This document shows positions 8,801 to 64,000 of a stretch of 64,000 bases of DNA, piece after piece. Every line of letters starts with the position of its first letter. Position 1 is the first letter of the stretch. The notes under the pieces are model-generated. The model had not been told where the DNA came from. It saw nothing but the letters and a program-made list of their open reading frames with translations, and ran no database searches. The DNA is taken from the NCBI GenBank assembly GCA_001792345.1, contig MGGJ01000001.1, positions 153,710 through 217,709 of the forward strand. Reading direction: 5' to 3'. Both the position numbers and the translations under genes were made by a program. This stretch comes from Candidatus Woesebacteria bacterium RIFCSPHIGHO2_01_FULL_39_32. GTDB lineage: Bacteria > Patescibacteriota > Microgenomatia > UBA8517.

Positions 8801-9943
8801 ATGATCAAAATAGCGATTGATTCTGGGCCGTTGAGTGACGGGCATGCTGTGAGGGGAATTGGTGTGATGGTTAGGGAACAGATAAATGCACTAAAGAACT
8901 TAAAAACTAAAGAACTAAAGAGAATAGTGATAGAAAATTTTGACTTTCAGAACGAAGATGGAAGAAAGAAATTAGAATCTGGAGAATATGACGTTGTTCA
9001 CTATCCATACTTTTTTCCATACGCACTTACTATGCCTGAAAAAAAGCAAGGAAAAAGGATGGTTGTGACAATTCAGGATTTGATCCATCTTGTTTACCCC
9101 AAACACTATCCACCAGGAATCAGGGGTAAGATTAATTTCTTTAAACAAAAAACCAGACTGAAAAATGTTGATGCTGTTATCACAATTTCTGAAACTTCTA
9201 AGAAAGATATAGTTAGATTTTTAGGAATCCCAGCTGAAAAAGTACATGTGGTTTATCTAGCACCGAAGAAAATATTTAGAAGATTGGAGATTAGTGATTC
9301 GAGATTGGCTGAAACAAAGAATAAATATAATTTACCAAATAAATTTGCTCTATACGTTGGAGATGTTAACTTCAATAAAAATATTCCCAATTTAATTAAA
9401 GCTTGTCGGGTCGCAAAAATACCTCTTGTTATTTGTGGAAAGCAAGCCCTGGAGATCGAAGAAAGAGGGGTTGATTTAAGAACCCTTCAAGGCCCCAGAG
9501 ATTGGGCGAGATTCTTGTTTAACATTCCACACCCAGAACTGGCTCATTACGAAGAATTGCTAACCGAATTTAAAAAAAGTAAAAGCGTTATTAGGACTGG
9601 TTTTGTACCCGATGAAGAACTTGCGAAGATATTTAACTTAGCGTCGGTTTATGTTCAGCCGTCTTTTTACGAGGGTTTCGGATTACCTGTATTGGAAGGA
9701 ATGGCAAGCGGCACTCCTGTTGTGGTTGCCCGTACGAACGCATTAACTGAAATTTCGCAAGATGCCGCATTGGTTGTTAATCCAAAAGATCCGAAGGATA
9801 TGGCGGAAAAAATAAATACTGCAATTAGAAATCTGGAGGTAAGATCTCGGCTTACCCAGAAGGGTCTGGCAAGAATAAAGGATTTTTCCTGGGAGAAGAC
9901 AGCAAGGGAAACGATAAAAATTTATAAAGAGATATGGGAATAA
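8801..9943 (+). CDS. glycosyltransferase family 4 (GT-B, retaining)
   Basis: C-terminal EGFGLPVLEGMASGTPVV (E-X7-E region) typical of GT4. Confidence 0.75.
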   Translation: MIKIAIDSGPLSDGHAVRGIGVMVREQINALKNLKTKELKRIVIENFDFQNEDGRKKLESGEYDVVHYPYFFPYALTMPEKKQGKRMVVTIQDLIHLVYPKHYPPGIRGKINFFKQKTRLKNVDAVITISETSKKDIVRFLGIPAEKVHVVYLAPKKIFRRLEISDSRLAETKNKYNLPNKFALYVGDVNFNKNIPNLIKACRVAKIPLVICGKQALEIEERGVDLRTLQGPRDWARFLFNIPHPELAHYEELLTEFKKSKSVIRTGFVPDEELAKIFNLASVYVQPSFYEGFGLPVLEGMASGTPVVVARTNALTEISQDAALVVNPKDPKDMAEKINTAIRNLEVRSRLTQKGLARIKDFSWEKTARETIKIYKEIWE

Positions 9944-11127
9944 AGAAAATACTTACTATGATTATTGCTTGGAGAATTTTACTTCTTGTTTTTCTTTTCT
10001 TAGCAATTCAGATTTTACCTCTTCAGTTAAACTTTCTGGGAGGAGGACTGGAAAATTATTTGGAAAAACCATTCTTCTGGGGCTGGGCAAATTATGATGG
10101 AGAACACTACATTTACATTGCAAGAAATGGTTATACACCATTAACTTATTTTTATTTCCCACTATATCCATTAACGATCCGATATCTGGTAAATTTAACC
10201 GACGGTAGTTTCTTATCCTATTTATACTCGGGACTCTTCGTTTCACACATTGCTTTTTTAAGTGGGTTGATTGGGTTGATAAGGGTGATAAGAATAGATT
10301 ATGACGAACGAATAGTTTGGTCTACGTTAACACTCCTTTTAGTGTTTCCAACATCCTTCTACTTCGGAAGTGTTTATACCGAAAGTTTATTCTTTGCATT
10401 ATCTATCTGGTCTTTTTATTTTGCGAGAAAAGGAAAGTGGGTTTTAGCTGGTGTATTAGGTGCGTTGTTGACTGCAACAAGATTGGTAGGGATCGCACTT
10501 TTTCCTGCACTCATTGTTGAGGCTCTTCAACAATGGAAAGAGGATAAAGTAAATCTTAGGTTAGCATTTGCTTCATCATTTGCTGTTTTGTTGGGGTTGA
10601 TTTTTCATGCTTTTGTACTAAATTCAAGGACGGGTGATCCGCTTAATTTTTTACATTCAGTAGGGATTTTTGGACCACAAAGAGCGAGAGCGTTTATTAA
10701 CCTTGCTCAAGTTTTTTACAGATATATTTTTAAAATAATTCCGAACATAGATTATTCCTACTTTCCTACGATGTTTACGACATGGATGGAATTTTTAGTC
10801 GCAATTTTGTTTGGGGGATTAGGGGTATTAGGGATATTTGGAGGATTAGCCCTTCGACTTCGCTCAGGGTCTTCGAGGAGTTTAATACTACCTAAAATAA
10901 GACCAAGCTACGTTGTTTACCTTGTAATTGGTTATATCATACCCACTTTATCTGGAAGTTTTTCTTCACTACCGAGGTATGTTTTGGTTCTTTTCCCCGG
11001 TTTCATTCTTGGTGCATTACTTATTGCAAAACTTCCTAAAATTATTCAGACAGGGATAATATTAGGATCATTTATATTATTGGCTTTAGCAACAATGTTA
11101 TTTGTTAGAGGGTACTGGGTATCCTAA
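9934..11127 (+). CDS. polytopic membrane protein, putative GT-C-type glycosyltransferase (DUF2029/PIG-like)
   Basis: 397 aa with about 10 predicted TM helices and a conserved early loop (DGEHYIYIARNGY). It sits among glycosyltransferases. Confidence 0.4.
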   Translation: MGIKKILTMIIAWRILLLVFLFLAIQILPLQLNFLGGGLENYLEKPFFWGWANYDGEHYIYIARNGYTPLTYFYFPLYPLTIRYLVNLTDGSFLSYLYSGLFVSHIAFLSGLIGLIRVIRIDYDERIVWSTLTLLLVFPTSFYFGSVYTESLFFALSIWSFYFARKGKWVLAGVLGALLTATRLVGIALFPALIVEALQQWKEDKVNLRLAFASSFAVLLGLIFHAFVLNSRTGDPLNFLHSVGIFGPQRARAFINLAQVFYRYIFKIIPNIDYSYFPTMFTTWMEFLVAILFGGLGVLGIFGGLALRLRSGSSRSLILPKIRPSYVVYLVIGYIIPTLSGSFSSLPRYVLVLFPGFILGALLIAKLPKIIQTGIILGSFILLALATMLFVRGYWVS

Positions 11128-12396
11128 ATGAAAATTCCAAATTTAAAGACGTTCGGATTAAATCTCTTAAAACACCCACTTTTTTCGGGAAGTGCGATTA
11201 TGATTTTTGGATCTAACTTAGCAAATTTTGTTGCTTATTTATACCATCTTGTCATAGGACGACTCCTTGGTCCTGCGCCGTATGGTGAATTGTCTGCGGT
11301 TCTATCTGTACTTGGTCTTATTTTTGCATCACTCAATTTTCTTGGCCTAGTTATTGTTAAATTTGTTTCCTCGGCCAAGAAAGATGAACTAGTAAGTATT
11401 TACTCTTGGTTTACAAAAAAATCGGTAGTTGCAGGCCTAGGCTTGGCTTTATTGGTTTTGATACTAACTCCTTTTTTCAGTAATTTTCTACACATAAAAA
11501 CTACAACGTTTTTACTCACTGTGCCTATTTTATCTTTTAGCGTAGCTTCATTTGTATATAGATCTTTTTTGCAGGGTCTTCTGAAATTTAAAGAAGTTGT
11601 TATCGCGATAAACCTCGATTTTATATTCAGGTTGGCGCTTGGAGTTTTATTTATATCTTTAGGTTTTTCATCATTTGGTGCGGTTCTGGGAATGGTATTT
11701 TCGATGGGCTTATCCTTTTTATTCCTGAAATATTTTCTTAGAGAATATCACGCAATTGAAAAAGTAAAACCTTTCGGGAGGACAAAGGAGGTTCTAAAAT
11801 ATGCTACCCCCATATTTTTCGCAACTGTTGCGACAAACTCCATGTTTTCATCGGACGTAGTTTTGGTGAAACATTTCTTTAGCCCGCACGACGCAGGAAT
11901 TTATGCGTCCTTATCGACTTTAGGAAAAATAATTTTTTTTGGCGCAGGGCCCGTTGGTGCAGTAATGTTTCCAATGATTTCTAAACGGCATTCCATTGGT
12001 GCTGGATATAAAAAAATATTCTTATTAAGTCTACTTCTTACTTCGCTTATTGCTTTTGGGGTATTGTTGATTTATTGGCTAGCTCCTGAATTGTCGATAA
12101 AAATTCTTTACGGAAACGAGTTTATTGAAGGGGCACCTTATTTGGTATGGATAGGAGCCTTTATGACGCTTTTTACTCTTTCCTCCTTGGTTCTTAACTA
12201 TTTTCTTTCAAGAAATAAAACAACTGTTGCTATAACAGTTGTAATTTCTGCTCTAATTCAAATTATCGGAATTTGGCTATTCCACGAGACGATTTTAAGC
12301 GTATTAAAGGTTTCAATCGTCTCATCTTCCTTATTTTTGGCGTCTTTGTTACTATACTTTGCATATGAAGCGAAAAACGCAAGCAGCAGAAAATAG
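11128..12396 (+). CDS. Wzx-like oligosaccharide flippase / polysaccharide biosynthesis protein (MOP superfamily)
   Basis: 422 aa with about 12 TM helices, the topology of polysaccharide export flippases. Confidence 0.55.
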   Translation: MKIPNLKTFGLNLLKHPLFSGSAIMIFGSNLANFVAYLYHLVIGRLLGPAPYGELSAVLSVLGLIFASLNFLGLVIVKFVSSAKKDELVSIYSWFTKKSVVAGLGLALLVLILTPFFSNFLHIKTTTFLLTVPILSFSVASFVYRSFLQGLLKFKEVVIAINLDFIFRLALGVLFISLGFSSFGAVLGMVFSMGLSFLFLKYFLREYHAIEKVKPFGRTKEVLKYATPIFFATVATNSMFSSDVVLVKHFFSPHDAGIYASLSTLGKIIFFGAGPVGAVMFPMISKRHSIGAGYKKIFLLSLLLTSLIAFGVLLIYWLAPELSIKILYGNEFIEGAPYLVWIGAFMTLFTLSSLVLNYFLSRNKTTVAITVVISALIQIIGIWLFHETILSVLKVSIVSSSLFLASLLLYFAYEAKNASSRK

Positions 12397-13192
12397 AGAA
12401 AAACTTGTATCGGTTATCATCCCGGCCTACAAAGCCGAGAAGACTATTGAAAAAAGCTTAATTAAAACAAAGAAAGTTTTAGATGCTATACGTTATAACT
12501 ACGAAATAATTTGTATCGATGACGGGAATACCGACAAAACCCGAGTCAATGCTGAAAAAGTCGCAAAAAAATTTCCCGATAAAATTAAAATTGTTGGATA
12601 CCTTACCAATTTAGGTAAAGGACACGCTGTTCGATTCGGAATGGCTCAGGCGGAGGGCGATATAATTGGTTTTATTGATGCTGGTCTTGACGTTGATCCA
12701 AATGGAATATCCATGTTACTTGAACATTTTGAGTGGTATGGTGCAGACATAATTATTGGCTCTAAAAGACATCCCGCCTCAAAATTAGAATATTCCTGGC
12801 AAAGAAAAATTGTATCAATTGGATATCAGATATTGGTAAGAACCCTTTTTGGAGTTAAAGTGAGAGACACGCAGGTTGGTCTGAAATTCTTCAAGAGAGA
12901 AGTTTTAGAGAAGGTTCTTCCCAGAATTCTGGTTAAAGAGTTTGCTTTCGATATTGAAATTCTATCAGTTGCGTACTACCTTGGCTTTAAAAGGATTTTT
13001 GAGGCACCAGTTGAGTTGAAAATGGAATTTGGGGGCTCCACAATTATCAGTAAAGGATTTATTAGAACAGTTTTTAAAACGCTTTGGGATACAGTGGCAG
13101 TTTATTACAGACTTAGAATTCTTCACTATTATGATGATAAAAACAATAAAAATTGGATAACTCCCGATTATCTTACTCTCAAAAGTAAATGA
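12359..13192 (+). CDS. glycosyltransferase family 2 (Dpm1/polyprenyl-phosphate sugar synthase-like)
   Basis: VSVIIPAYKAEKTI...IDDGNTDKT, plus a DAG (IDAGLDVD) motif. The true start may be the second Met (MKRK). Confidence 0.7.
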   Translation: MHMKRKTQAAENREKLVSVIIPAYKAEKTIEKSLIKTKKVLDAIRYNYEIICIDDGNTDKTRVNAEKVAKKFPDKIKIVGYLTNLGKGHAVRFGMAQAEGDIIGFIDAGLDVDPNGISMLLEHFEWYGADIIIGSKRHPASKLEYSWQRKIVSIGYQILVRTLFGVKVRDTQVGLKFFKREVLEKVLPRILVKEFAFDIEILSVAYYLGFKRIFEAPVELKMEFGGSTIISKGFIRTVFKTLWDTVAVYYRLRILHYYDDKNNKNWITPDYLTLKSK

Positions 13193-15213
13193 AACAGTTT
13201 TCCATCCTCAGTTTCTTGATTTTCTTCATTTTATTATTTCCTGAAAAATGTTTTGCAGATGAGGATAATCAATTCATCACAATTGTAAATCCGGTTAGAA
13301 TATCACGTTACACTACTAATTCTTCTGAGAGTATTCTCTCTCAATATTCGGTGATAAAAGAATTAGATTTAGCAGCTACCTGGTTACTTACATATGATGT
13401 TTTAATTAATAATGGATCTGTTACGGCAATTAAGGATTTTGATGAAAATCAGGAAATCGGTCTTTTCCTGGAAATTTCTTCTGAATTTGCTGAGGAATCT
13501 GAGGTTATTTATAACGATACAGGGAGTTGGCACTATGCTCCTTCAGTTTTTCTCTCCGGGTACAAACAGGAAGAAAGGGTAAAACTAGTTGATACTCTTT
13601 TTGAGAAGTTTAAAGAAACATTTGGGCATTATCCAACCTCGGTCGGAGGGTGGTGGATCGATTCGTTCTCATTGGAATACATGAAGCAAAAATATGGAAT
13701 AACTGCAAATTTAGGACTTTCCGATCAGTTTTCAACAGACGGATATCAAGTTTGGGGAACATTTTGGTCAACCCCCTTTTATCCATCTAACTATCATGCA
13801 GGAATTCCTGCTGTTGAAGAATCAGTCAAACTTGATGTCGTGACTTTACAATGGGCGCCTCGGGATCCTTTAAATGGTTACTTCAATAGTTATTACAGCA
13901 CTCAAGATTATCTCCAAAATCCTGTGAATCAAGACACGTCGTACTTTGAAAAGTTAGTTCGCCTGTATGCCAAAAAGAATGAGAATGCATTTGGACAGAT
14001 TGTTGTCGGGCTAGAATCAGATTTATCTCCTGAGGCTTATAAAGGAGAATTTGCAAAACAGATGGAAGTTGTTAAGAGATTAGGAAATTCGGATGATCTA
14101 CAAGTTTTGACAATGAGTGAATTTAGTAATTGGTATAGGCTTACATTTCCTAATCTATCACCCACTCAAGTTGTGGAGACAGATGATCTTCTGGGAAAGC
14201 CTATAAAAGTAATTTGGTATCAAACGCCTAAGTTACGTATAGGATTAACTTATAACTACGAAACTTTCGAAACAAAAATCTTCGATTTCCGCGGTTATCA
14301 TTCAAATTTTCAAGAATCATATTATGTAACTCCGAACAAAGAGCGGGAACTTTCTATCTACATCCCTTCCTACTTTGATGAAATAAATAATACAGATGAT
14401 GTTTGGAGTATAAGTTTAGGAAAACTTACGGAAAGCAAAAGAAATGACCAAGAACTGAATATGGTTTTTACTAAGGGTGAAATAATTTTTGGTCGAGATA
14501 AATTCCTAATTAAAGGGTCAAATGAAGTGCCTAATATTTTGGCTAAAAATCCAAATCTCATGGTCCGTAAAAAATTAACCGGTATTGAAATTTCTCCTAA
14601 AGACGCTTGGGTTATTGATCGTAACGGATATGTTTTCAAAGATTTAACGGATATTGCTACAAGAGAACTGATGCGGAAAAGAACCCTCGGGTTGGTTTTG
14701 GTTTTTACGAGCCTTTTTCTTAGTTTGGGTTTTGGTGTAATTCTTTCAAAGATTTCTCAAAGAAAAAAACTCCTAGTCTTAAGCTTCATGATAATTCCAC
14801 CTACTTTATTTATCAACAATTGGTACCAGAAAAACACTATGAATTATTATGTAAGTCAGGCAGAAATTGACGCGCTTTTAAATCTTTCTACAAAACCACC
14901 AGGCAAAGTTCTTGTGTACGGAAGGGAATGTTTAGGTTGCGAATGGGCTACACCTCAAAAGCCAGCCGTTTTCTCGAACAAAAGAAGTTATGTTCAAAGA
15001 TGGGGAAAACACCCCATTGTTTATAATTCAAGCGTTTTTGAAGCCCAAAACCAGCAAGTCGCAAGGCGAAAATTTGATGAACTGAATGCATCTTACATTT
15101 ATATTACAAAATATGGGGATTATGTTGAAAAAGTACCTTTTTCCCCAGGAGACCTTAATATAGAAAAATTGTATGATAATGCTAACGCCGAAATCTGGAA
15201 GGTAAAAGAATGA
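13189..15213 (+). CDS. exported/membrane-anchored hypothetical protein
   Basis: 674 aa with an N-terminal signal-like segment (MKQFSILSFLIFFILLFPEKCFA) and a large soluble domain. A single TM lies near residue 510 (LGLVLVFTSLFLSLGFGVIL). Confidence 0.45.
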   Translation: MKQFSILSFLIFFILLFPEKCFADEDNQFITIVNPVRISRYTTNSSESILSQYSVIKELDLAATWLLTYDVLINNGSVTAIKDFDENQEIGLFLEISSEFAEESEVIYNDTGSWHYAPSVFLSGYKQEERVKLVDTLFEKFKETFGHYPTSVGGWWIDSFSLEYMKQKYGITANLGLSDQFSTDGYQVWGTFWSTPFYPSNYHAGIPAVEESVKLDVVTLQWAPRDPLNGYFNSYYSTQDYLQNPVNQDTSYFEKLVRLYAKKNENAFGQIVVGLESDLSPEAYKGEFAKQMEVVKRLGNSDDLQVLTMSEFSNWYRLTFPNLSPTQVVETDDLLGKPIKVIWYQTPKLRIGLTYNYETFETKIFDFRGYHSNFQESYYVTPNKERELSIYIPSYFDEINNTDDVWSISLGKLTESKRNDQELNMVFTKGEIIFGRDKFLIKGSNEVPNILAKNPNLMVRKKLTGIEISPKDAWVIDRNGYVFKDLTDIATRELMRKRTLGLVLVFTSLFLSLGFGVILSKISQRKKLLVLSFMIIPPTLFINNWYQKNTMNYYVSQAEIDALLNLSTKPPGKVLVYGRECLGCEWATPQKPAVFSNKRSYVQRWGKHPIVYNSSVFEAQNQQVARRKFDELNASYIYITKYGDYVEKVPFSPGDLNIEKLYDNANAEIWKVKE

Positions 15214-15668
15214 ATTTATTTTATTTTATTCCTAAAAATCTATTGCTTCATGAAGTTATTCACTTATTCGCCACTTTACCTTTTTTGTTTATCGTGTGGA
15301 AAAAAACTAAATCGATTAAATTAATAATTCTTACAATTTTTATTACAATTATTATCGATATTGACCACATTTTGGATTATTTTTTATATTACGGCTTTTC
15401 ATTAGATTTCATTAAGTTTCTAAAAGCCGATTATTTCAGTCAAAGTGGACACGCATATGTTCTTTTCCATGGGTGGGAGTGGTTAGCTCTACTTGTTATC
15501 ATTAATATGAAAAGTATGGTCAATATTAAAAAAAAATGGAAAACTTTTTGGTTTATACTACTTTTTGCGTATACACCCCATCTTATTTTAGACTCATTGA
15601 ACGTCGGAAGTTTCTTATTTTATTCAATCCTGTATAGACTATTCCATAGCTTTACCTATCTAGTATGA
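15210..15668 (+). CDS. small polytopic membrane protein
   Basis: 152 aa and strongly hydrophobic. Translationally coupled on both sides. Confidence 0.4.
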   Translation: MNLFYFIPKNLLLHEVIHLFATLPFLFIVWKKTKSIKLIILTIFITIIIDIDHILDYFLYYGFSLDFIKFLKADYFSQSGHAYVLFHGWEWLALLVIINMKSMVNIKKKWKTFWFILLFAYTPHLILDSLNVGSFLFYSILYRLFHSFTYLV

Positions 15669-17779: not shown

Positions 17780-17786
17780 TTAGAGG

Positions 17787-19759: not shown

Positions 19760-19764
19760 TTTTA

Positions 19765-22780: not shown

Positions 22781-22817
22781 ACTGTTAATTGGTGTAAGAC
22801 ATATTATAATTGCAGTA

Positions 22818-48524: not shown

Positions 48525-48527
48525 GTA

Positions 48528-49220: not shown

Positions 49221-49251
49221 ATTATTTTACCCATTTAGTAAATTCAAATAT

Positions 49252-52788: not shown

Positions 52789-53132
52789 AAAAAATACGTA
52801 GTTATAGATATCCCATTTTTATTTTTTCATTGTTTGTCCTAACTGTCCTTAATATAATAAAAATAGTTGCGCGATCAAGGTTTGCTGTAAATATATTTCC
52901 TAACCTACATTACTGGTTATGGACGATTATTCTAATAGAAGCTGTTTTTGTTTTTAACATTAAGATCAAAAATGTTTTAAAAATAGCTCTTGCTTTAACA
53001 GTAGTCGGGGGAGCTTTATCTATTTTTAGAATTGTTATTGCTGAAAATGTACTAAAATTCGGTTTTATATTGTGGATAGTGGGTTATCTTTTTAATCTTA
53101 TTGAGATTGTTAGAAAAAATGAAATTAATTAA
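52785..53132 (+). CDS. small membrane protein
   Basis: 115 aa with 3-4 TM helices. Translationally coupled. Confidence 0.35.
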   Translation: MKKIRSYRYPIFIFSLFVLTVLNIIKIVARSRFAVNIFPNLHYWLWTIILIEAVFVFNIKIKNVLKIALALTVVGGALSIFRIVIAENVLKFGFILWIVGYLFNLIEIVRKNEIN

Positions 53133-53289
53133 TAGTACCTCCTTTTTTCTTACGTTTTTATTATCACTGATCTTATCACTTGTATCTTTTCTAACGTATC
53201 ATCCCAGAATGAGCGAGTGGATGCTTAATACTAGCTTCACGTTTATCGTTATTGGAACGTTATTCTACTTTCGGGATCTCAAAAAATGA
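53119..53289 (+). CDS. small membrane peptide (possible)
   Basis: 57 aa from internal Met (MKLINSTSFFLTF...) with two hydrophobic helices. Short, low confidence. Confidence 0.2.
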   Translation: MKLINSTSFFLTFLLSLILSLVSFLTYHPRMSEWMLNTSFTFIVIGTLFYFRDLKK

Positions 53290-56090: not shown

Positions 56091-56113
56091 AAAGGGTATA
56101 ATTTTGGGTAGAT

Positions 56114-57415
56114 ATGAAAAATATCGTTTCCCGCTTGCCATTTTACTCTTACTTCGACGAAATAATTTCAACTTCAACCTTTAGGCACTCATCAATTACT
56201 TTGATTGGTACGGTTTTAACAGGTGCCCTCGGCGCGGTTTTTTACATCTTGACCGCCAGATTTTTGGGACCGTCGCTTTTTGGCCTTCTAAACGTTGCAA
56301 TTGTTACTCAGACACTTATTACCGACATCGGCGACCTAGGGACGGACACGGGCTTAGTCAACTTTGTCTCCCGCTATATCAAGATAGATATAAAAAAGAC
56401 ATACAGATTTTTGAAGCTTGCCTTTGAGATTAAACTGATTGTCTACGTACTCACTTTGACTATTGGATTGGCTTCTGCAAGTTTTATTGCCCGAGAAATG
56501 CTCGACCTACCCCAAGTAGAACAACCGTTAAAGATTGCGATTGTGGGTGTTGGAGCAATTTCTCTCTTTGGGTTTATTACCCGCACTTTCCAAGCCCAGC
56601 AACGATTCTGGGCCTGGAGTGGAATTCAGGTAGGCATAAATACCCTACGCATTGTTTTTATCGGCCTTCTGACTCTTCTGGGTTATTTAACTTTGGAGAA
56701 TACTCTTTGGGTTTACATCGCCATGCCACTCCTTGGCTTTGCCATTGGTTTACTGCTAATTTCACCTAAATTTTTGAAAGCAAAAAAAGAATTTACCGTC
56801 GCGAGGGAATTTTTTGGTTACAACAAATGGGTTGCCGCATTTACCATTTTGGCAGCAATCAGTTCGCGCTTAGATACCTTTATTTCGGCCAGGCTTTTGA
56901 GCTCTGTCGACCTTGGTCTTTATTCTGCCGCAAATCAAATGGTAAAGTTGGTTCCGATGATCGTAGCGGCAATGGGCACAGTAATTGCACCGAAAATGGC
57001 CGGGATCGATTCGGTTGAGAAATTAATAACTTACATAAAAAAGACCCAGGTGATGGTAATTGCAGTCGCTGTTGTAGGTCTTTCTTTATCACCTCTGGCA
57101 ATTTGGTTAATACCTTTATTATTGGGCGGGGAATATGTGGGTGCGGGACCAATTTTCCTGATACTGTTAACTGCGATGCTTAGCTTTTTAATTTCAGTAC
57201 CTACCCATATGGCTATTATCTATTATTATTCAAAACCATCTTTTTTCTTTTGGTTATCAATAGTTCATCTTTTAATAATTGCTATTTTGGGTTGGTTTTT
57301 AACTTCAAAGTATGGAACAATAGGAGCTGCAACTACAGTACTTCTAGGACAAGTAGTGAATTTTGTAATTCCTCTTCTGTGGGTTTTGAGGAAGATAAAT
57401 CAGACAAAAGCCTAA
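56114..57415 (+). CDS. Wzx-like flippase / polysaccharide biosynthesis protein (MOP superfamily)
   Basis: 433 aa with ~12-14 TM helices, the typical flippase architecture. Confidence 0.55.
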   Translation: MKNIVSRLPFYSYFDEIISTSTFRHSSITLIGTVLTGALGAVFYILTARFLGPSLFGLLNVAIVTQTLITDIGDLGTDTGLVNFVSRYIKIDIKKTYRFLKLAFEIKLIVYVLTLTIGLASASFIAREMLDLPQVEQPLKIAIVGVGAISLFGFITRTFQAQQRFWAWSGIQVGINTLRIVFIGLLTLLGYLTLENTLWVYIAMPLLGFAIGLLLISPKFLKAKKEFTVAREFFGYNKWVAAFTILAAISSRLDTFISARLLSSVDLGLYSAANQMVKLVPMIVAAMGTVIAPKMAGIDSVEKLITYIKKTQVMVIAVAVVGLSLSPLAIWLIPLLLGGEYVGAGPIFLILLTAMLSFLISVPTHMAIIYYYSKPSFFFWLSIVHLLIIAILGWFLTSKYGTIGAATTVLLGQVVNFVIPLLWVLRKINQTKA

Positions 57416-57416
57416 A

Positions 57417-58715
57417 ATGAAGAGACTTGCATTAATATTCCTTGGGATAGTATCTTTCACCCTACGTTTTTATAAACTAGGCGTTATACCGAAAGGAATA
57501 AGTATGGAGGAAGCATCTTTCGGTTTATCGATCGCCAAGTTTTTTGGAGATGAGATTCTTAACCCCTTTTTTGTTCGATTGCCATTCGCAATTTTAGGAA
57601 TCTTGAGCGTTTTTGTTTTCTATTCTTTGCTTTGCCGATTTGGAGAATCTTTTAAATTTTCTTATTTATCAAGTTTATTACTAACTCTTACTCCTTGGCA
57701 TATACAAGAAAGTAGAATTGTTTCGAAGGGTATTTTGCTGACCTTTATACTTATTTTGTTAGCTCTTATTTTTTCAAAACAATTAAAATCGCGGACAAAA
57801 TTATTAACTTATTCCGCTTTTCTACTTTCAACTTTACTTTTCGTAGCAACTCTTTTAATTTCTCTCCCTAAAGTTAGTGATGCAGTTGATATAGAAAGAC
57901 AAGAGGCAGCAAATGTTATATCTGTTAAGATGTCTAGAGTCTTTTCAAATAAAGCAGTTGAATCTTATAGAAAAAATGTTTTTACAATATATGAACATCT
58001 TGATTATGGAGTTTATTTTTTTAATGGACATCCCCGACAAAGGTGGGGAGTGGAAGAAACACAAAAGCTTTTTATTTCCTTTATCCCATTAATAATAATT
58101 GGAATAATAAAATTGAGGAATAACAAAGGACTTCTTTTGGGAGTATTATTTATTTTTTTAGTAACGCTTTTTACATTTTTGGAATATCGCGATCCATCGG
58201 AAACTCTACCTTTGGTTTTTATTTTCGTTTTCTTTTCAGCGAGTGGCTTAACTTATTTATTAAACAAAAAAGAAAATCTAAAAGTTTTTTATATTCTACT
58301 TTTAATATTAGGGTACGAGTTTTTTAATTTTAACGTCATATATTTTTTAGGATTGTCTGAATCGACTTTTTCTCCAAGAAGACCCGTATATGAAGACCTC
58401 GTAAAAAATGTAAATCACGTTCGTAGAAACGATGAAAAAGTTTTGGTAAATGAAAGACTATTAAAACCTAAAATATTCTTTCAATTTTATTTAAAAGATC
58501 CTGCTCCAAATGATTTTGAATTTAGAAATTATAACGTATGGAATGAGGATGATAAAAATGTTTTATTTGTCGATGTGTTACCCTTCGAGCCTTCACCTAC
58601 CGAGTCTCTTTATACAAAGGAAGGAAACTTTCCTGAAAAACTTACTTTTTTGTATGAGATAAACGACGAACAATTAAAACAAACAGTTTTTATATATAGA
58701 TATGACAAGAATTAA
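57417..58715 (+). CDS. PMT/ArnT-like (GT39/GT83-type) membrane glycosyltransferase, tandem paralog 1
   Basis: N-terminal LRFYKLGVIPKGISMEEASFG...FFVRLPFAILG resembles the dolichyl/undecaprenyl-phosphate-sugar GT-C N-terminus. 432 aa. Confidence 0.45.
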   Translation: MKRLALIFLGIVSFTLRFYKLGVIPKGISMEEASFGLSIAKFFGDEILNPFFVRLPFAILGILSVFVFYSLLCRFGESFKFSYLSSLLLTLTPWHIQESRIVSKGILLTFILILLALIFSKQLKSRTKLLTYSAFLLSTLLFVATLLISLPKVSDAVDIERQEAANVISVKMSRVFSNKAVESYRKNVFTIYEHLDYGVYFFNGHPRQRWGVEETQKLFISFIPLIIIGIIKLRNNKGLLLGVLFIFLVTLFTFLEYRDPSETLPLVFIFVFFSASGLTYLLNKKENLKVFYILLLILGYEFFNFNVIYFLGLSESTFSPRRPVYEDLVKNVNHVRRNDEKVLVNERLLKPKIFFQFYLKDPAPNDFEFRNYNVWNEDDKNVLFVDVLPFEPSPTESLYTKEGNFPEKLTFLYEINDEQLKQTVFIYRYDKN

Positions 58716-60345
58716 CAAAATTAGCTTTGTTTTTGTTTTTTTATTTGGATTAGGAACAATTTTGCGAGTATGGAACTTGGGAGGGTTGCCTTGGGGGTTT
58801 TTCCGCGATGAAGCAGCGTTGGGATATAACGCCTATTCGATTTGGTTAACCGGAAAGGATGAATTCGGAATTTCATTTCCGCTAGTTTTCAGATCTTTTG
58901 AGGTATTTTTCTTGCCCTTATATGTTTATCTTTCGGCTCCTATTGTCGGAGTTTTTGGCTTAAATGACTTTACTTCAAGATTTCTTTCAAGCGTGTCAGG
59001 AATTGTAGCTTTATATTTCATATATTTAATCGGAAAAAAAATCTGGAACAAAGAAACAGGAATATTTACTCTTTTTGTTTTGGTAATTTCGCCATGGCAT
59101 ATTTTCTATAGTCGTGGTGCTTTTGAAGGAAATTTAGCACTCACACTTTTTACCGCAGGATTTTATTTTTGGATAAGTTTCCTGAAAGAGAAGACAGGTA
59201 ATAATTTTTTTATTTCTACACTTCTGTTTACCTTATCAATGTATTCTTATCAAGCTGAGCGTTTGGTTGTCCCTCTTTTTGCATTAATTTCTGTTTCTTT
59301 GGTTGCTAAAGATTTATGGAGGGTTAAACAAAAACTTATTTTCCCTTCAATTTTAACCCTTTTTCTGCTGATACCACTTTTATTTATTTCATTTAAAGCG
59401 GGTGGATATCACAGAGTATTTGGAGTAAGTGTCTTTAGTAAAGAGGGGGCGCCTCCTGGATGGATTGAAGGAAATAATGCTAGTTTTTTCGTGAACAACA
59501 ACGTATACCTTCGGGGGAAACAAATATTATCTTTGTATGCTTCCTATTTTTCTCCAAGAAACTTGTTTTTTGAAGGCGATTTCGATAAACAGAGATCAGT
59601 AGAAAATTATAGCGTGTTCTACTCGTTCTTTTTACCATTTTTAGTTATTGGTTTATTCTCTCTTACTAAAAAATCAAAGATAGAAGAAAAATTAATCCTA
59701 ACCTGGATGTTTCTAGGACCATTGCCCGCCTCTTTTACAGCCGATCCCTTTCATACTTACAGATCTTTGATGTTTTATATGCCGCTTACAATAATCATCG
59801 GGCGAGGTTTTTATGTGTTTTTCCAGGATGTTAAAAAACTATTTTTCTGGAGGAATTTATTTTTAATAGGATTAGTAAGCGTTTCCGTGCTTAACCTGTT
59901 GTTGTTTTTATATAACTACACGATCCTTACGCAAGTTACCAGGGCATCTTATTGGGATTATGGTTATAGGCAATTAGTCACTTATATCAATTCTTTAGAC
60001 ATTAGGGGGCAAGTAGTAGTCGATGATCCATCAACCGAAGCCTATATTCACTTTTTGTTTTTTGGAAAGGTAGAACCAATCTCTTATCACCAAGAAGTTA
60101 CAAATCTTGGACCTCTCGATTACTACTACACTAATCCAGCCGAAATTCGGCCGAACAAAATCGGCAATATTGAGTTTCGTAAAATCGACTGGCCGAAAGA
60201 AAGGGGCGATTCGGGTAACATTTTTGTTTTTGCAAAGGGTTTGTTGCCGGAAAGTGAGTATGTTACTGATCCGAAAGTTGAGCTTTTGACGAAAATAAAA
60301 TATCCTGATGGAACTGACGCTTTTACAATTTTAAAAATAAAGTGA
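58702..60345 (+). CDS. PMT/ArnT-like (GT39/GT83-type) membrane glycosyltransferase, tandem paralog 2
   Basis: ILRVWNLGGLPWGFFRDEAALGYNAYSIWLTGKDEFGISFPLVF. First-loop D-E acidic motif as in the PMT_2 family. 547 aa. Confidence 0.55.
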   Translation: MTRINKISFVFVFLFGLGTILRVWNLGGLPWGFFRDEAALGYNAYSIWLTGKDEFGISFPLVFRSFEVFFLPLYVYLSAPIVGVFGLNDFTSRFLSSVSGIVALYFIYLIGKKIWNKETGIFTLFVLVISPWHIFYSRGAFEGNLALTLFTAGFYFWISFLKEKTGNNFFISTLLFTLSMYSYQAERLVVPLFALISVSLVAKDLWRVKQKLIFPSILTLFLLIPLLFISFKAGGYHRVFGVSVFSKEGAPPGWIEGNNASFFVNNNVYLRGKQILSLYASYFSPRNLFFEGDFDKQRSVENYSVFYSFFLPFLVIGLFSLTKKSKIEEKLILTWMFLGPLPASFTADPFHTYRSLMFYMPLTIIIGRGFYVFFQDVKKLFFWRNLFLIGLVSVSVLNLLLFLYNYTILTQVTRASYWDYGYRQLVTYINSLDIRGQVVVDDPSTEAYIHFLFFGKVEPISYHQEVTNLGPLDYYYTNPAEIRPNKIGNIEFRKIDWPKERGDSGNIFVFAKGLLPESEYVTDPKVELLTKIKYPDGTDAFTILKIK

Positions 60346-61184
60346 AAATTTGGGCACATAGCTTGGTACGCAATGAAGAGAGATATTTGTGGTTTGCAGT
60401 AACGAGTGTAATCGATTATGTGTACAAAGTTTTATTGTGGGATACGGGAAGCAGTGATAATACGCTTAACATTATTCGTGAGCTTCGAAAGGCTTTTCCC
60501 AACAAGATAGATTTTAAGCAGGTTAGAGAAGTTGATAAGGATAAATTTACTTTGATGCGGCAAAAAATGTTAGATCAAACGAAATCGGATTGGGTGATTC
60601 TAGTTGATGGGGACGAGGTATGGTGGGATGATTCGATCAAAAAAATAGTTGAAACCATCCACTCAAAAGGGAATTCCCTTGAAACACTTGTCCATGGTTA
60701 CTATAACGTCATCGGCGACATTTATCATTACCAGGAGGAGAAAGCGGGAAGATATACAATTGATGGCCATGTGGGTCACCTAACAATTCGCGCAATTAAT
60801 CAAAAAATTCCCGGACTCCACTTCGGAAAACCCCACGGCCAACAGGGCATTTTCGATTCAAAGGAAAGATTAATTCAAGACCGTGACAAGAAGAAAAGAT
60901 TTTTTATAGATGAAAAGCTTTATTTACACTTTACCCACATGATTCGCTCCTCATCGTTAAAAGACGATTTAAAGGTAATGAAAAGGGATATTAAAGCAAA
61001 ACACGAATTAGGCACACCATTTCCTTTGGATTTTTACTATCCGGAAGTTTTTTTCAAACCAAGACCCGATATTGTTCATCTTCCCTGGAGCAAAATGGGT
61101 TCAAGATATTTTCTAAGAGCATTTTTTGAGACACCGCTTCGTAAATTTAAAAGGAGAGTGTTTAAAGGTAAAAGTGGATATTAA
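60342..61184 (+). CDS. GT2-like nucleotide-diphospho-sugar transferase (putative)
   Basis: LWDTGSSDNTLNII (resembles the DxGSxDxT block of GT2) and DGDE (DxD). Confidence 0.4.
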   Translation: MKIWAHSLVRNEERYLWFAVTSVIDYVYKVLLWDTGSSDNTLNIIRELRKAFPNKIDFKQVREVDKDKFTLMRQKMLDQTKSDWVILVDGDEVWWDDSIKKIVETIHSKGNSLETLVHGYYNVIGDIYHYQEEKAGRYTIDGHVGHLTIRAINQKIPGLHFGKPHGQQGIFDSKERLIQDRDKKKRFFIDEKLYLHFTHMIRSSSLKDDLKVMKRDIKAKHELGTPFPLDFYYPEVFFKPRPDIVHLPWSKMGSRYFLRAFFETPLRKFKRRVFKGKSGY

Positions 61185-61186
61185 TT

Positions 61187-63076
61187 CTAATCGAAGAAAT
61201 TTTTAAACCAAAGCTCAAGTGTAAGAAGAGACCAAAGTTTTGGACCAAAATCTGTTTTTTCAGTATGGCTTTTTAGCATTCTTTTGATTTCCTTCTGGTT
61301 AAATAAGTTTCTGGTCTTGGCATTTTTGTCCAATAAAACAGATTCGGAATATTTATTAAGCTTGCCTGTAAACCACTTATCAAGTGGAATGCTAAAACCA
61401 ACTTTCTTTCTGTACAGATTATCGTAGGGGACAAGATCCTCTAAAGCTTTTTTGAGAATATATTTATTAACTTTGAAATTTCGGACCTTTAAGTCAAAAG
61501 GAATCTGGCATGCAAGTTCAACTACCTTGTGGTCTATGAAAGGAGAACGCGCTTCCAATCCGACACTCATGGATGCGATATCTACTTTGACCAATAAGTC
61601 TTCGGGGAGATATTTAGTTAAGTCCCAGTACAAAGCTTCGTCTCTCGGGTCGATGTAGCCTGAATCTTTAAAGACATTTCTGACAATTTCATAGGAACTT
61701 TGTCCGCCGGCATTGTCAGTAAAATAGCTAAGAGCAAGTTTTTGCTTGTCGGTTTCGCTGAAATACTCTACGTAAGAGGCAAAGCGATCAGCCAAAGGAA
61801 GCATGGATTTTTGTAAAAATTTCCCCGATCGAAGCCAAAATTTACTTGCTATGTGTGTTCCCGAAAGAAGTGACGAAAGTGGGATTCCGACAGGTCTGAT
61901 AATTTTTTCGATGTGATCAAGAAAAACATCCCTTGCTATTCGCCTATATCTGTCATAGCCGGCAAAAAGCTCGTCTCCTCCGTCGCCATTTAATGCAACT
62001 GTAACCTCGGATCTGGCGAGCTTGCTAACCATGTAAGTTACAACAGAACTTGCGTCAGCATAGGGTTCTTCATACTGATATACAAGTTCTGGGAGAATTT
62101 CGATATTTTCCGGTTCAACAAAAATTTCCGAATGGTCAGTATTATACATTTTTGAAATCCTTTGTGCATATTCTGATTCGTCGTAAACTTTATCTTTAAA
62201 TCCGATGGTAAAGGTTCGAACGGGTTTTTTAGAATATCTGGCCATTAATGCTACTACGGCACTTGAATCAACCCCTCCGGATAAAAATGCACCCAGTGGA
62301 ACATCAGAGATGAGCCTTAACTTAGTAGCTTCGGCTAATTCATTTACTATCATATCTTTCCACTCATTTTCTGATAAATACAATTTTTTGGAAAAGTCGG
62401 GTTCCCAGTATTGCCTTTTTACGAGGTTTCTTTTTTTCAGATCCAATATAAGATAATGTCCCGGTTCCAGTTTATTTATTCCCACAAAACCAGTTCGAGG
62501 CGGGTGAATATACCCGAATGTTAGATAATGGTATATTGCTTCATAATCAGGAGTCCTTTTTACTTCTTTTTGTGTAATAATAGCTTTTAGCTCAGAGGCA
62601 AAAATAAATGTATTGCCGTCAATAAAATATTTGAGAGGCTTTTTGCCGATTCTATCTCTAGCCAGAAAAAGCGAATTTTGTTTTTCATCGTAAATTGCAA
62701 AAGCGAACATGCCCCGAAGGTGATTTAAACATTTGACTCCGAATTTAGCATATAGAGCCAATATAACCTCAGTATCTGTATTAGATTTGAACTTAACCCC
62801 CTCTCTTTGCAGTCTTTTCTTTAAACTTTGAAAATTATAAATTTCACCGTTGAAAGTGATCCAATATCGATTGTTAAATTGCATGGGTTGATGCCCCTTA
62901 GCAGATAAGTCAATAATTGCTAATCGTCTGTTTACTAAGCCAACCTTTTTGTTTTGGGAGATATATATGCCTTGGTCATCCGGTCCTCTGTGGACAATTT
63001 TTTTAGCCATAGCTAACAACTCTTTTTCCTGGAGAATCAGACTATTAAAGTAAATTTTACCTGCAATTCCACACAT
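61187..63076 (-). CDS. asnB: asparagine synthase (glutamine-hydrolysing)
   Basis: N-terminal MCGIAG (class-II GATase Cys2). SGGVDSS PP-loop. 629 aa. Confidence 0.85.
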   Translation of the reverse strand: MCGIAGKIYFNSLILQEKELLAMAKKIVHRGPDDQGIYISQNKKVGLVNRRLAIIDLSAKGHQPMQFNNRYWITFNGEIYNFQSLKKRLQREGVKFKSNTDTEVILALYAKFGVKCLNHLRGMFAFAIYDEKQNSLFLARDRIGKKPLKYFIDGNTFIFASELKAIITQKEVKRTPDYEAIYHYLTFGYIHPPRTGFVGINKLEPGHYLILDLKKRNLVKRQYWEPDFSKKLYLSENEWKDMIVNELAEATKLRLISDVPLGAFLSGGVDSSAVVALMARYSKKPVRTFTIGFKDKVYDESEYAQRISKMYNTDHSEIFVEPENIEILPELVYQYEEPYADASSVVTYMVSKLARSEVTVALNGDGGDELFAGYDRYRRIARDVFLDHIEKIIRPVGIPLSSLLSGTHIASKFWLRSGKFLQKSMLPLADRFASYVEYFSETDKQKLALSYFTDNAGGQSSYEIVRNVFKDSGYIDPRDEALYWDLTKYLPEDLLVKVDIASMSVGLEARSPFIDHKVVELACQIPFDLKVRNFKVNKYILKKALEDLVPYDNLYRKKVGFSIPLDKWFTGKLNKYSESVLLDKNAKTRNLFNQKEIKRMLKSHTEKTDFGPKLWSLLTLELWFKNFFD

Positions 63077-63235: not shown

Positions 63236-63916
63236 ATGGATAAAGTCGGGGAATATACGTTACAAATAATGAAATTGGCGGGTTGGTATAACAACTGGCT
63301 GTTTTCTCTTGTTAAGCCTTACTTAAAGGGTAAGATACTGGAAGTTGGCACAGGCATCGGAAACTTCACTTACCTACTGGCCAAAGAGGGAGAGGTTACT
63401 TCTATTGATATAGATAAAGTTTATATCAATAAGTTAAAAAAAAGCGTATCAATTAAGGTCGGTTATGGCGATATTGAAAAAGGAACATACTTTTTTTCGA
63501 AGAAGAAATTTGATTGTATTGTTTGTATGAATGTCTTGGAACATATAAAAAATGATTCTGTTGCACTTGAAAACATGCTTAGTCTTCTAAAACCCAAAGG
63601 AAGATTAATTCTTCTCATTCCGGCCCATAAGTTTGCATATGGGAGATTGGATAAAAATTTAGGCCATTATAGAAGATATTCCAAAGGGGAAATTGTATTA
63701 AAGTTGGTTGGTTCGGGTTTCAAAGTAAAAAAATTAAATTTTTTAAACTTTTTCGGCATAGTTGGATGGTTTTTGAATTCAAGGTTATTAAAACGAGATG
63801 TGTTGCCAAGTAGTCAACTAAGAATTTTTGATTTAATTTCAAGGCCGTTTCTTTTTGTCGAAAAATTTATAGAACCTCGGATGGGATTATCAATCCTTGT
63901 CGTGGCGGAAAAATGA
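63236..63916 (+). CDS. class-I SAM-dependent methyltransferase
   Basis: ILEVGTGIGNFTYLL; LKPKGRLILLIP. Confidence 0.65.
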   Translation: MDKVGEYTLQIMKLAGWYNNWLFSLVKPYLKGKILEVGTGIGNFTYLLAKEGEVTSIDIDKVYINKLKKSVSIKVGYGDIEKGTYFFSKKKFDCIVCMNVLEHIKNDSVALENMLSLLKPKGRLILLIPAHKFAYGRLDKNLGHYRRYSKGEIVLKLVGSGFKVKKLNFLNFFGIVGWFLNSRLLKRDVLPSSQLRIFDLISRPFLFVEKFIEPRMGLSILVVAEK

Positions 63917-64000
63917 AATTATCAATTATTATTCCAGTTTTTAACGAGGAAAAAACAATCTTTGAAATTATAAAAAAGGTAAAAAAAGTTGAACTTCCGG
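63913..64000 (+). CDS. GT2 (Dpm1-like) glycosyltransferase, 3'-truncated at window edge
   Basis: MKLSIIIPVFNEEKTI is the canonical GT2 N-terminus. The gene continues beyond the window. Confidence 0.55.
   Translation, partial: MKLSIIIPVFNEEKTIFEIIKKVKKVELP

Follow-up and report, generated by a model that had tools for sequence, protein, structure and literature searches.

Three-component extracytoplasmic glycosylation, for which a general scheme has been published (PMC11127046), is represented by the GtrA/B/C and ArnC-ArnE/F-ArnT systems and by a system of a polyprenyl-phosphoribose synthase, a MATE flippase and a GT-C glycosyltransferase of family GT136, the last with C-terminal domains resembling carbohydrate-binding modules (CBM) (Kelly et al. 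2024, PMC11127046). All three types of component, as candidate GT2 synthases, MOP flippases and GT-C enzymes, are found in a locus at positions 8801-64000 of the window analysed here, which is the whole stretch of 64,000 nucleotides at positions 153,710-217,709 of contig MGGJ01000001.1 (assembly GCA_001792345.1) from Candidatus Woesebacteria bacterium RIFCSPHIGHO2_01_FULL_39_32, a groundwater member of the Microgenomates in the candidate phyla radiation (CPR). As in GT136, some of the GT-C enzymes carry C-terminal CBM-like domains. The locus differs from the three-component systems in having many more GT-C enzymes (seven in the window and at least two downstream) and in that one of its GT-C families, for which Pfam has no model, is also seen as a fusion with GT2. 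The predicted donor also differs, being a hexofuranose made by a GDP-mannose 3',5'-epimerase (GME) and a GT75 mutase, whereas the donors of the described systems are a pentofuranose derived from phosphoribosyl pyrophosphate, glucose or 4-amino-4-deoxy-L-arabinose.

Three other kinds of system are also similar in part. The mycobacterial arabinan enzymes (AftD, AftA/B, EmbA/B/C) have counterparts in several paralogs in this one locus, of which 38880 (genes are named by their lower coordinate in Table 1) passes the GT-C_AftD cut-off, and the predicted model of 53286 shares the AftD layout, in which a GT-C domain at the N-terminus is followed by beta-sandwich CBM-like domains and by a transmembrane segment (TM) at the C-terminus. 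However, identity to mycobacterial AftD is only 11-12%, the proteins have 723-1207 amino acids compared with 1250-1312 residues in AftD chains, no UbiA-type, DprE1 or DprE2 protein was found among the window open reading frames (ORFs) in the Pfam scan, and the host is a CPR bacterium and not an actinobacterium. The biosynthesis of A201A and hygromycin A uses the same pair of enzymes, an MtdM-type epimerase and an MtdL/Hyg20-type GT75, and the catalytic residues are kept here. In contrast to A201A, the two genes are 6 kb apart in an envelope-glycan locus, and the mutase gene, translationally coupled to that of a DPM1-like GT2, stands opposite a GT-C gene. This arrangement suggests that the furanose donor is lipid-linked and serves a surface glycan, not a nucleoside antibiotic. 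Wzx/Wzy loci for O-antigen, capsule or S-layer glycans have Wzx, clusters of GT2 and GT4, nucleotide-sugar enzymes, an AsnB-type amidotransferase, methyltransferases and a carbamoyltransferase in common with this locus, but its right half is conserved across genera and not hypervariable.

The proposed glycan locus

The stretch is probably a composite cell-envelope glycan locus of at least 65 kb that works in three layers. As a system it is of a recognisable kind, though uncharacterised, with Leloir-type and GT-C/three-component chemistry, and it is built from parts of known kinds. The first layer would be cytoplasmic. GME 18749 is predicted to make GDP-L-galactose and GT75 25912 to contract its ring to GDP-L-galactofuranose, while two further short-chain dehydrogenases/reductases (SDRs), the kinase/nucleotidyltransferase, the second nucleotidyltransferase and the HAD phosphatase would give other activated units. 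The second layer would be assembly at the cytoplasmic face, carried out by five GT4 together with six GT2 of the Leloir type. Eight S-adenosylmethionine (SAM) methyltransferase domains would tailor the product, and the two that are fused to GT2 suggest transfer-coupled methylation or chain capping. The NodU/CmcH enzyme 36034 would add carbamoyl groups, for which the co-transcribed ornithine carbamoyltransferase (OTC) 42300 may give carbamoyl phosphate from citrulline.

In the third layer, the DPM1/AglJ/ArnC-like GT2 of 12359, 20834 and 27246 would load sugars onto polyprenyl phosphate. The two MOP/Wzx flippases, and perhaps the 115-amino acid protein with 4 TM, would flip the lipid-linked sugars, and seven GT-C enzymes (three AftD-like, 28028, 45810 and two PMT-like) would transfer the sugars to the growing glycan outside the membrane. 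One branch would run from GDP-L-galactofuranose through polyprenyl-phosphate-L-galactofuranose to a GT-C by way of the 27246-25912 gene pair, which faces 28028. That this pair forms an L-hexofuranose branch is the most likely reading of the gene context and of the family resemblance of 27246, 25912 and 28028.

Composition and extent

All window ORFs of at least 100 amino acids were compared with Pfam, with a permissive Pfam rescan, and selected sets were compared with NCBIfam. Positions 8801-64000 hold 44 such ORFs with a coding fraction of 0.984. The ORFs overlap at 21 of the 43 junctions, the largest gap is 159 nucleotides, and 37 ORFs are on the plus strand while the remaining seven form divergent islands on the minus strand. 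According to Pfam there are five GT4, nine GT2, one GT75/RGP and two Wzx (PF01943). The eight SAM-methyltransferase domains are found in 20834 (N-terminal), 22211 (minus strand), 29968, 31370, 32157, 43214 (C-terminal), 48528 and 63236, and are solid in Pfam except for the borderline N-terminus of 20834 (28.3 compared with 27 bits). The GT-C-type enzymes are 28028, 38880, the C-terminus of 45810, 49165, 53286, 57417 and 58702.

The original prediction, made from the letters of the sequence, had described a very large and dense glycan locus with many O-methyltransferases, packed head to tail with overlapping ends, and this description holds, as does its placement in an organism with a small genome. 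The profile searches upheld its inventory almost exactly, with genes for GT4, GT2, GT75, Wzx, methyltransferases, a NodU/CmcH carbamoyltransferase and PMT- and AftD-like proteins, including the two methyltransferases fused to GT2 (at the N-terminus of 20834 and the C-terminus of 43214 in Pfam). Two counts had to be changed: there are seven GT-C enzymes and not about four, and four nucleotide-sugar redox enzymes in the range, one of them truncated, instead of five. The extent of more than 55 kb is correct as far as it goes, but the locus runs on for at least 10 kb past position 64000 with GT2, GT4, GT2, two PMT_2, GT4, CYTH, GT4, a hexapeptide acetyltransferase and GT2, so that in full it measures 65 kb or more.

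Membrane glycosyltransferases and lipid-linked sugars

The PMT-like and GT-C enzymes imply that the envelope is glycosylated outside the membrane, as had been predicted. Among the AftD-like proteins, 38880 is the one with a direct Pfam match, to PF11847. Its paralog 49165 has an ortholog carrying PF11847 in a distant relative (L098, described below). No Pfam match was found for 53286, permissive rescan included, but the profile comparison with 38880 gave an hhalign probability of 98.6% (E 1e-15). The AlphaFold2 model of 53286 has a pLDDT of 85.2, and a Foldseek search with it gave AftD (6w98/6wby) as the best match (1e-12), followed by STT3, AftA, PglB and ArnT. The C-terminal beta-sandwich domains of this model match CBM6-like and CBM35-like modules. 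Direct sequence searches of PDB with 38880, 53286 and 58702 gave nothing useful, which made fold and profile comparisons necessary. More than 232 full-length homologs of 53286, with 41-58% identity, come from Woesebacteria, Daviesbacteria and other Patescibacteria; those that carry a name are all labelled hypothetical, and no Pfam domain is found in any of them.

The second type of GT-C is 28028, with 645 amino acids, 11 TM and the GT-C transmembrane fold in a predicted model. It has no matches to family models and eight database homologs only, and an aspartate and a tryptophan after the first TM (D41-W42) are invariant. The 10-TM C-terminal half of 45810 is homologous to 28028 (3.5e-5), and the GT2 fusion is shared by one of the database homologs of the family (P0128). 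In L009 (positions 11156-18384; Daviesbacteria contig JACPDA010000004.1) four tandem GT-C paralogs of this family, 579-629 amino acids long, follow directly after GT75, so that the family is expanded next to the mutase gene. The membrane protein 9934 was compared with the 28028 family and rejected as a member (hhalign probability 0.9%); it is Wzy-like by topology alone.

The GT2 fall into two groups by their nearest relatives. For 12359 these are PgfS and ArnC in NCBIfam (2.4e-16 for each, below the equivalog cut-offs), with some likeness also to PpgS. The GT2 domain of 20834 is closest to AglJ (109 bits) and to dolichyl-phosphate hexose transferases (5e-15). The short GT2 27246 has a single PDB match, to the dolichyl-phosphate mannose synthase of Pyrococcus furiosus (5mlz, 3.6e-9), and scores 71 bits against AglJ. 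In contrast to these synthase-like proteins, 37801, 43214, 44863 and the N-terminus of 45810 are nearest to Leloir transferases of the WbbL/EpsD/GlfT1 type in NCBIfam.

It is possible, if rather unlikely, that protein O-glycosylation is the main purpose of the locus, with the PMT-like GT-C moving lipid-linked sugars to serine and threonine residues of S-layer, pilin or other surface proteins. The PMT_2 match of 58702 is above the gathering cut-off, two more PMT_2 genes are found downstream of the window, and some GT2 are nearest to AglJ, an enzyme of S-layer N-glycosylation. Fusions of methyltransferase and GT2 are also known from S-layer glycan pathways, for example WsaE of Geobacillus, and count in the same direction. 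On the other hand, PMT_2 also covers ArnT-like transferases that act on lipids and glycans, and the largest GT-C are AftD-like with CBM-like domains, which points to a polysaccharide acceptor. Neither a target protein nor an oligosaccharyltransferase was identified in the window.

Conservation and modularity

The comparison with related genomes that the original prediction had proposed showed that the right half of the window is syntenic in two distant relatives, L097 and L098, which are 53% and 43% identical and have contigs of 162 kb and 629 kb. The common order starts with GT2, methyltransferase (GT2-methyltransferase fusion) and an AftD-like GT-C of about 1100-1190 amino acids, continues with a membrane protein of 114-129 amino acids, a GT-C of about 900 amino acids, Wzx, GT2 and (AsnB), and ends with a NodS/DREV-like methyltransferase, GT2, GT4, GT2 and PMT_2. 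Because this gene order is kept, the right half (about 43 kb to past 64 kb) reads as a core locus of the lineage Microgenomates and not as a strain-specific island like those of O-antigens. The carbamoyltransferase, OTC, GME and GT75 genes are not near the right half in these relatives, and the GT75 core is found separately in Daviesbacteria. The left and middle parts are more variable and the locus is modular.

It is rather unlikely that the whole 55-65 kb directs a single elaborate glycan. Such a product would agree with the contiguity of the locus, its coding density of 98%, the mostly common orientation and the overlapping stops and starts. However, the locus encodes two separate MOP flippases and three separate GT2 resembling polyprenyl-phosphate synthases, the seven minus-strand genes are placed in divergent islands, and the parts differ in conservation as described above.

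Nucleotide sugar donors

GME 18749 matches the Arabidopsis enzyme (2c59) at 7.3e-119. The functional residues described for GME (PMC8787198) are a catalytic triad of S143, Y174 and K178, C145 and K217 as acid and base, and R243, R306 and N203; in an alignment 18749 keeps all eight equivalents. GT75 25912 matches the MtdL structures 7xpr/7yua over its full length (residues 14-386, 1.8e-102), compared with 3.8e-6 for the plant UDP-arabinopyranose mutase 8cid. MtdL needs D87, DDD109-111, R159, D195, Q229, R257, D260 and H287 for catalysis, and Mn2+ is coordinated by the DDD (DXD) motif D109-111 and H287 (PMC9937993). The corresponding set in 25912 is D98, D120-122, R172, D206/D208, Q240, R268, D271 and H298, which is invariant in an alignment of 25 sequences. 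Residues T13, N42 and S86 of MtdL have been proposed to select GDP over UDP (PMC9937993), and two of the equivalents, T19 and S97, are of the GDP type in 25912.

In A201A biosynthesis GDP-mannose is converted to GDP-L-galactose and then to GDP-L-galactofuranose (Zhu et al. 2017, as cited in PMC8787198 and PMC9937993). The best reading of 18749 and 25912 is that they would catalyse the same two steps, with the exact sugar inferred. The glycan probably contains the rare sugar L-galactose, likely in the furanose form. The ORF directly upstream of mtdL in Marinactinospora thermotolerans is 58% identical to 18749, and in seven genomes of other phyla, the mtdL locus included, GT75 has a GME homolog (49% identity or more) no further than 1.2 kb away. 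In a scan of GTDB species representatives, among which this genome itself is not included, the best GT75 match was from Daviesbacteria with 67% identity.

The stop of 27246 overlaps the start of 25912 by 4 nucleotides, indicating translational coupling. Two CPR relatives, L009 (the Daviesbacteria contig above) and L010, keep this pair with 70-74% identity in GT2 and 65-67% in GT75; their core consists of methyltransferase, GT4, GT2 and the 28028 ortholog, facing the GT2-GT75 pair. In a set of 78 GT75 loci that spans many phyla, the gene found most often as a direct neighbour encodes a short GT2, about 240 amino acids long (20 loci, adjacent in 18), and the short GT2 in other phyla aligns with 27246 over its full length. 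The pair recurs in loci of Acidobacteriota, Planctomycetota and Verrucomicrobiota that also carry Wzm/Wzt exporters. This recurrence suggests that environmental bacteria may commonly make the sugar and that it has been overlooked in them.

Eight GT75 loci outside CPR, L050 included, carry Wzt (an ABC ATPase with a Wzt_C domain) together with a Wzm-like permease. Their position beside MtdL-type GT75 suggests that furanose-containing polysaccharides may be exported by ABC transporters in several phyla. In the window, 25912 has a C-terminal extension of about 59 amino acids (25912-26090) beyond MtdL and most homologs, which have about 380 amino acids, and its 3' end overlaps the convergent GT4 gene 24795-25937 by 26 nucleotides.

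The dehydrogenase homolog 17787 has kept the glycine-rich Rossmann motif and the GGPCFPKD motif with the catalytic cysteine but is without the C-terminal UDP-binding domain, and scores 140.7 bits against TIGR03026 (cut-off 189.8). It is called as the same gene of 282 amino acids in all other assemblies, and is perhaps a gene in decay or a short form not yet described. SDR 16775 is below every NCBIfam equivalog cut-off, with UDP-glucose 4-epimerase (4zrm, 1.4e-31) as its nearest PDB entry.

The enzymes had been called plant-like in the original prediction, which is correct for the families but not for the pathway, since an MtdL-type GT75 and a GME point to GDP-L-hexose or GDP-L-hexofuranose and not to UDP-xylose or UDP-arabinose. 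A plant-like route would go from UDP-glucose through UDP-glucuronic acid, UDP-xylose and UDP-L-arabinopyranose to UDP-L-arabinofuranose by an RGP/UAM mutase and feed AftD-like arabinofuranosyltransferases. The Pfam RGP match, the ORF of the UDP-glucose dehydrogenase family adjoining the SDRs and the AftD match of 38880 would fit. This route is nevertheless very improbable and was rejected: the mutase is far closer to the GDP-specific MtdL than to plant UAM and keeps GDP-type residues at the T13 and S86 positions, the dehydrogenase homolog is truncated, no SDR reaches an equivalog score for UXS or UXE in NCBIfam, and the SDR that co-occurs with GT75 elsewhere is GME.

The same pair of GME and MtdL-type mutase, the methyltransferases and the CmcH-type carbamoyltransferase are also found in antibiotic clusters of actinomycetes, and the locus could in principle encode a secondary metabolite such as a glycosylated antibiotic of the A201A/hygromycin kind. 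This is very improbable: genes for polyketide synthases, non-ribosomal peptide synthetases or a nucleoside scaffold are not present, seven GT-C, two Wzx flippases and 14 GT2/GT4 are, the right half is syntenic as a lineage core, and in other phyla GT75 stands beside Wzm/Wzt polysaccharide exporters.

Carbamoylation

Two chemically different carbamoyltransferases had been predicted to tailor the glycan. One of them, 36034, contains the N-terminal as well as the C-terminal domain of the NodU/CmcH type, which makes it credible as an O-carbamoyltransferase for sugars. The other, 42300, was rejected in this role because it exceeds the equivalog cut-offs for OTC in two NCBIfam models, which makes it an amino-acid carbamoyltransferase. 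With translational coupling to glycosyltransferase genes on both sides, it might provide carbamoyl phosphate from citrulline. This link is speculative, as neither 42300 nor 36034 is present in the syntenic loci of L097 and L098.

Integrity of the assembly

GC content is 0.31-0.39 across the window with no break or step. Positions 3189-64000 are collinear with, and 99.95-100% identical to, contigs of separate ENA, JGI, Logan and NCBI assemblies, of which 100,914, 170,313 and 485,717 bp are among the lengths, from different samples and pipelines. Assembly GCA_001791885.1 and Rifle-aquifer metagenomes contain the locus too. A chimeric assembly, which the original prediction had named as a possible source of error, is refuted to near certainty by these collinear independent assemblies, one of them on a contig of 485,717 bp, and by the smooth GC content, and nothing was found in its favour.

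One difference between assemblies was seen. The GT4 gene 41044-42303 contains a perfect heptanucleotide repeat, (AATCACC)x3.4, at 41373-41396. An independent contig of 485 kb (L090, position 5571) is shorter by exactly one unit, and its GT4 gene is broken into two ORFs, of 133 and 292 amino acids; the other 22.7 kb are identical. By its sequence this gene may be a slipped-strand, phase-variable or strain-variable glycosyltransferase.

Evidence against the proposed mechanism

Several observations weigh against the mechanism outlined above. No priming phosphoglycosyltransferase (Bac_transf or MraY/WecA type), recognisable Wzy or chain-length regulator was found in the window with Pfam, permissive rescan included (no match to Bac_transf, Glycos_transf_4, Wzy_C or Wzz), which also sets the locus apart from Wzx/Wzy loci. 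All sub-class calls for GT2 are below the NCBIfam equivalog cut-offs, and the fold of 28028 was modelled on an alignment of 10 sequences. At the position of MtdL S228 the mutase has Thr239, nearly invariant across the clade, and at that of N42 it has Lys52, invariant there. MtdL also accepts GDP-L-fucose, so that this or a further GDP-L-hexose might be the substrate of 25912. The absence of 42300 and 36034 from the two syntenic loci is a further point. Of the kinase/nucleotidyltransferase predicted for 33190, the nucleotidyltransferase is supported (54 bits; nearest PDB entry for the N-terminus LicC 1jyk, 3.2e-8), while the kinase assignment is weak, with a Pfam APH match at 9e-4 and aminoglycoside phosphotransferases alone, at 0.03, in PDB. 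The LicC/LicA (choline) reading of 33190 would be an architectural analogy only.

A narrower version of the composite reading is put forward tentatively, with less than even confidence: that Microgenomates produce an O-methylated envelope polysaccharide typical of the lineage, built partly outside the membrane and arabinan-like, in which L-hexofuranose is added through GME, GT75, 27246, 28028 with the C-terminus of 45810, and the AftD-like proteins.

Features of the window

The coordinates of the genes are given in Table 1. The exported protein 13189 has an N-terminal domain of about 400 amino acids with 752 representative homologs in varied architectures of up to 1639 amino acids. This domain has many invariant tryptophan, tyrosine, aspartate and glutamate residues, and its profile matches PDB 3lm3 alone (3.3e-4) and Pfam DUF3863 weakly. 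For 9934 there were no Pfam or NCBIfam matches even at E<=10, and for 52785 none in Pfam, permissive rescan included, or in NCBIfam. A faint DUF5667-like segment (E 0.008) is found at residues 699-770 in the extracytoplasmic part of the 49165 protein; the DUF5667 protein 30866 itself sits among methyltransferases.

Upstream of the locus, a single ORF of 515 amino acids (1480-3027, plus strand) fuses an N-terminal vitamin K epoxide reductase (VKOR) domain with 4 TM to a dihydroorotate dehydrogenase domain, an unusual pairing in a CPR genome of a quinone/thiol oxidoreductase and an enzyme of the pyrimidine pathway. A homolog of IS200-like Y1 transposases (635-1318, minus strand, 227 amino acids; Pfam match to residues 79-153 only) is found about 7.5 kb upstream of the locus, and beside it, at 1338-1364, the 10-nucleotide unit GGCAAGGCCT is repeated 2.7 times in tandem.

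Table 1. Genes at positions 8801-64000 of the window with their predicted products (aa, amino acids; APH, aminoglycoside phosphotransferase-like family; GH, glycoside hydrolase; NDP, nucleoside diphosphate; MT, methyltransferase)
Predicted product	Position	Strand	Evidence
GT4	8801-9943	+	Pfam Glycos_transf_1 98.7 bits
Polytopic membrane protein with 7 TM or more, a candidate for a Wzy-type polymerase or for a small glycosyltransferase of the membrane	9934-11127	+	Hydropathy/topology
Wzx/MOP flippase 1	11128-12396	+	PF01943 69.9 bits; 9+ TM
GT2 like polyprenyl-phosphate sugar synthases PgfS/ArnC/PpgS/AglJ	12359-13192	+	Pfam GT2 94.8 bits
Membrane-anchored exported protein, 674 aa; possibly carbohydrate-active (GH/deacetylase-like)	13189-15213	+	TM 1-19, 500-518
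Small membrane protein, 152 aa	15210-15668	+	Weak YdjM match 0.007; TM prediction
GT4	15665-16783	+	Glycos_transf_1 116 bits
Extended SDR, NDP-sugar 4-epimerase/dehydratase-like	16775-17779	-	Epimerase 147.6 bits
Short NDP-sugar dehydrogenase homolog, 282 aa	17787-18635	-	N-terminal and central Pfam domains only
GME	18749-19759	+	7.3e-119 to Arabidopsis GME 2c59
Extended SDR	19765-20772	-	Epimerase 78.2 bits; NCBIfam matches weak
N-terminal MT fused to AglJ/Dol-P-hexose-transferase-like GT2	20834-22225	+	Methyltransf_23 28.3 bits, GT2 71.4 bits
SAM MT	22211-22903	-	Methyltransf_25/11; 189 aa by gene callers in other assemblies
GT2, in core common to CPR relatives	22818-23654	+	GT2 92.9 bits; 59-62% identical orthologs in L009/L010
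GT4, tandem paralog of 24795 (43% identical)	23647-24783	+	Glycos_transf_1 102 bits
GT4	24795-25937	+	Glycos_transf_1 101 bits
GT75 NDP-pyranose/furanose mutase, bacterial MtdL/Hyg20 type	25912-27249	-	PF03214 72.7 bits
Short GT2, Dol-P-Man-synthase/AglJ-like	27246-27977	-	5mlz 3.6e-9; AglJ 71 bits
GT-C-fold membrane glycosyltransferase, family without Pfam model	28028-29965	+	Predicted fold
SAM MT, orthologs in L009/L010 core	29968-30816	+	Methyltransf_11 75.4 bits
Membrane-anchored DUF5667 protein	30866-31339	+	PF18915 39 bits; N-terminal TM
SAM MT	31370-32149	+	Methyltransf_23 81.8 bits
O-methyltransferase	32157-33095	+	Methyltransf_24/Methyltransf_3; weak CmcI/rhamnosyl O-MT match
Nucleotidyltransferase and APH-like kinase fusion (LicC/LicA arrangement)	33190-34842	+	NTP_transferase 54 bits; APH 9e-4
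Sugar-1-phosphate nucleotidyltransferase-like	34844-35605	+	NTP_transferase 28.5 bits; NCBIfam matches
HAD-IIIA phosphatase, capsule-biosynthesis phosphatase-like	35654-36037	+	TIGR01689 86 bits, under 162 cut-off
NodU/CmcH-type O-carbamoyltransferase	36034-37797	+	Carbam_trans_C 196.9 bits, Carbam_trans_N 109.9 bits
GT2, WbbL/HpsN/GlfT1-like Leloir transferase	37801-38883	+	Pfam, NCBIfam
AftD-like GT-C, 723 aa	38880-41051	+	PF11847 35.1 bits (gathering cut-off 26); 11 TM
GT4 with (AATCACC)x3.4 repeat	41044-42303	+	Glycos_transf_1 84 bits
OTC	42300-43250	+	NF001986 424 bits (cut-off 306); TIGR00658 415 bits (cut-off 281)
GT2 with C-terminal MT fusion	43214-44866	+	Pfam, NCBIfam; same fusion in relative L097
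GT2, rhamnosyltransferase/EpsD/GlfT1-like	44863-45807	+	47% identical to 45810 N-terminus
GT2 fused to 10-TM domain of 28028 GT-C family	45810-48524	+	GT2 92.6 bits; C-terminus vs 28028 3.5e-5
SAM MT	48528-49220	+	Methyltransf_11 65.5 bits
AftD-like GT-C, 1207 aa; large extracytoplasmic C-terminal region, C-terminal TM	49165-52788	+	blastp 1.7e-47 to 38880
4-TM protein, 115 aa; GtrA-sized candidate lipid-sugar flippase	52785-53132	+	Counterparts of 114-129 aa in L097/L098
AftD-like GT-C, 934 aa; CBM-like beta-sandwich domains, C-terminal TM	53286-56090	+	hhalign, predicted fold
Wzx/MOP flippase 2	56114-57415	+	PF01943 78.6 bits; position conserved in L097/L098
PMT-like polytopic protein, weak	57417-58715	+	PF02366 9.4e-4, below cut-off; weak similarity to 58702
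PMT_2 (GT39/GT83-like) GT-C	58702-60345	+	PF13231 41.3 bits (gathering cut-off 26.1)
GT2	60342-61184	+	GT2 53.2 bits; position conserved in L097/L098
AsnB-type glutamine amidotransferase	61187-63076	-	Asn_synthase 328 bits; also in L097
SAM MT, NodS/DREV-like	63236-63916	+	Pfam; position conserved in L097/L098

Implications

CPR bacteria are ultra-small, mostly uncultured and thought to live attached to other cells, and their surface chemistry is almost unknown. A literature search turned up no description of glycosylation loci in Woesebacteria, and L-galactofuranose as an NDP-sugar product was found only in papers on A201A and MtdL. The scale of the locus and some of its enzyme families are undescribed, and the literature searched reports none of the following features for CPR. 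The locus is noteworthy for its size in relation to a CPR genome, for the predicted branch to L-galactose or L-galactofuranose, for a new GT-C family with no Pfam model and for the AftD-like pair conserved in Microgenomates, which is currently annotated only as hypothetical. If the narrower reading is true, it would be the first three-component system for a hexofuranose and the first use of L-galactofuranose at a cell surface. As a rare sugar, the predicted L-galactose or L-galactofuranose might be used as a chemical marker. CPR genomes are typically about 1 Mb. If that holds here, a locus of at least 65 kb makes up about 6% of the genome, and the glycan would then be a major determinant of fitness, in attachment, phage defence or envelope integrity.

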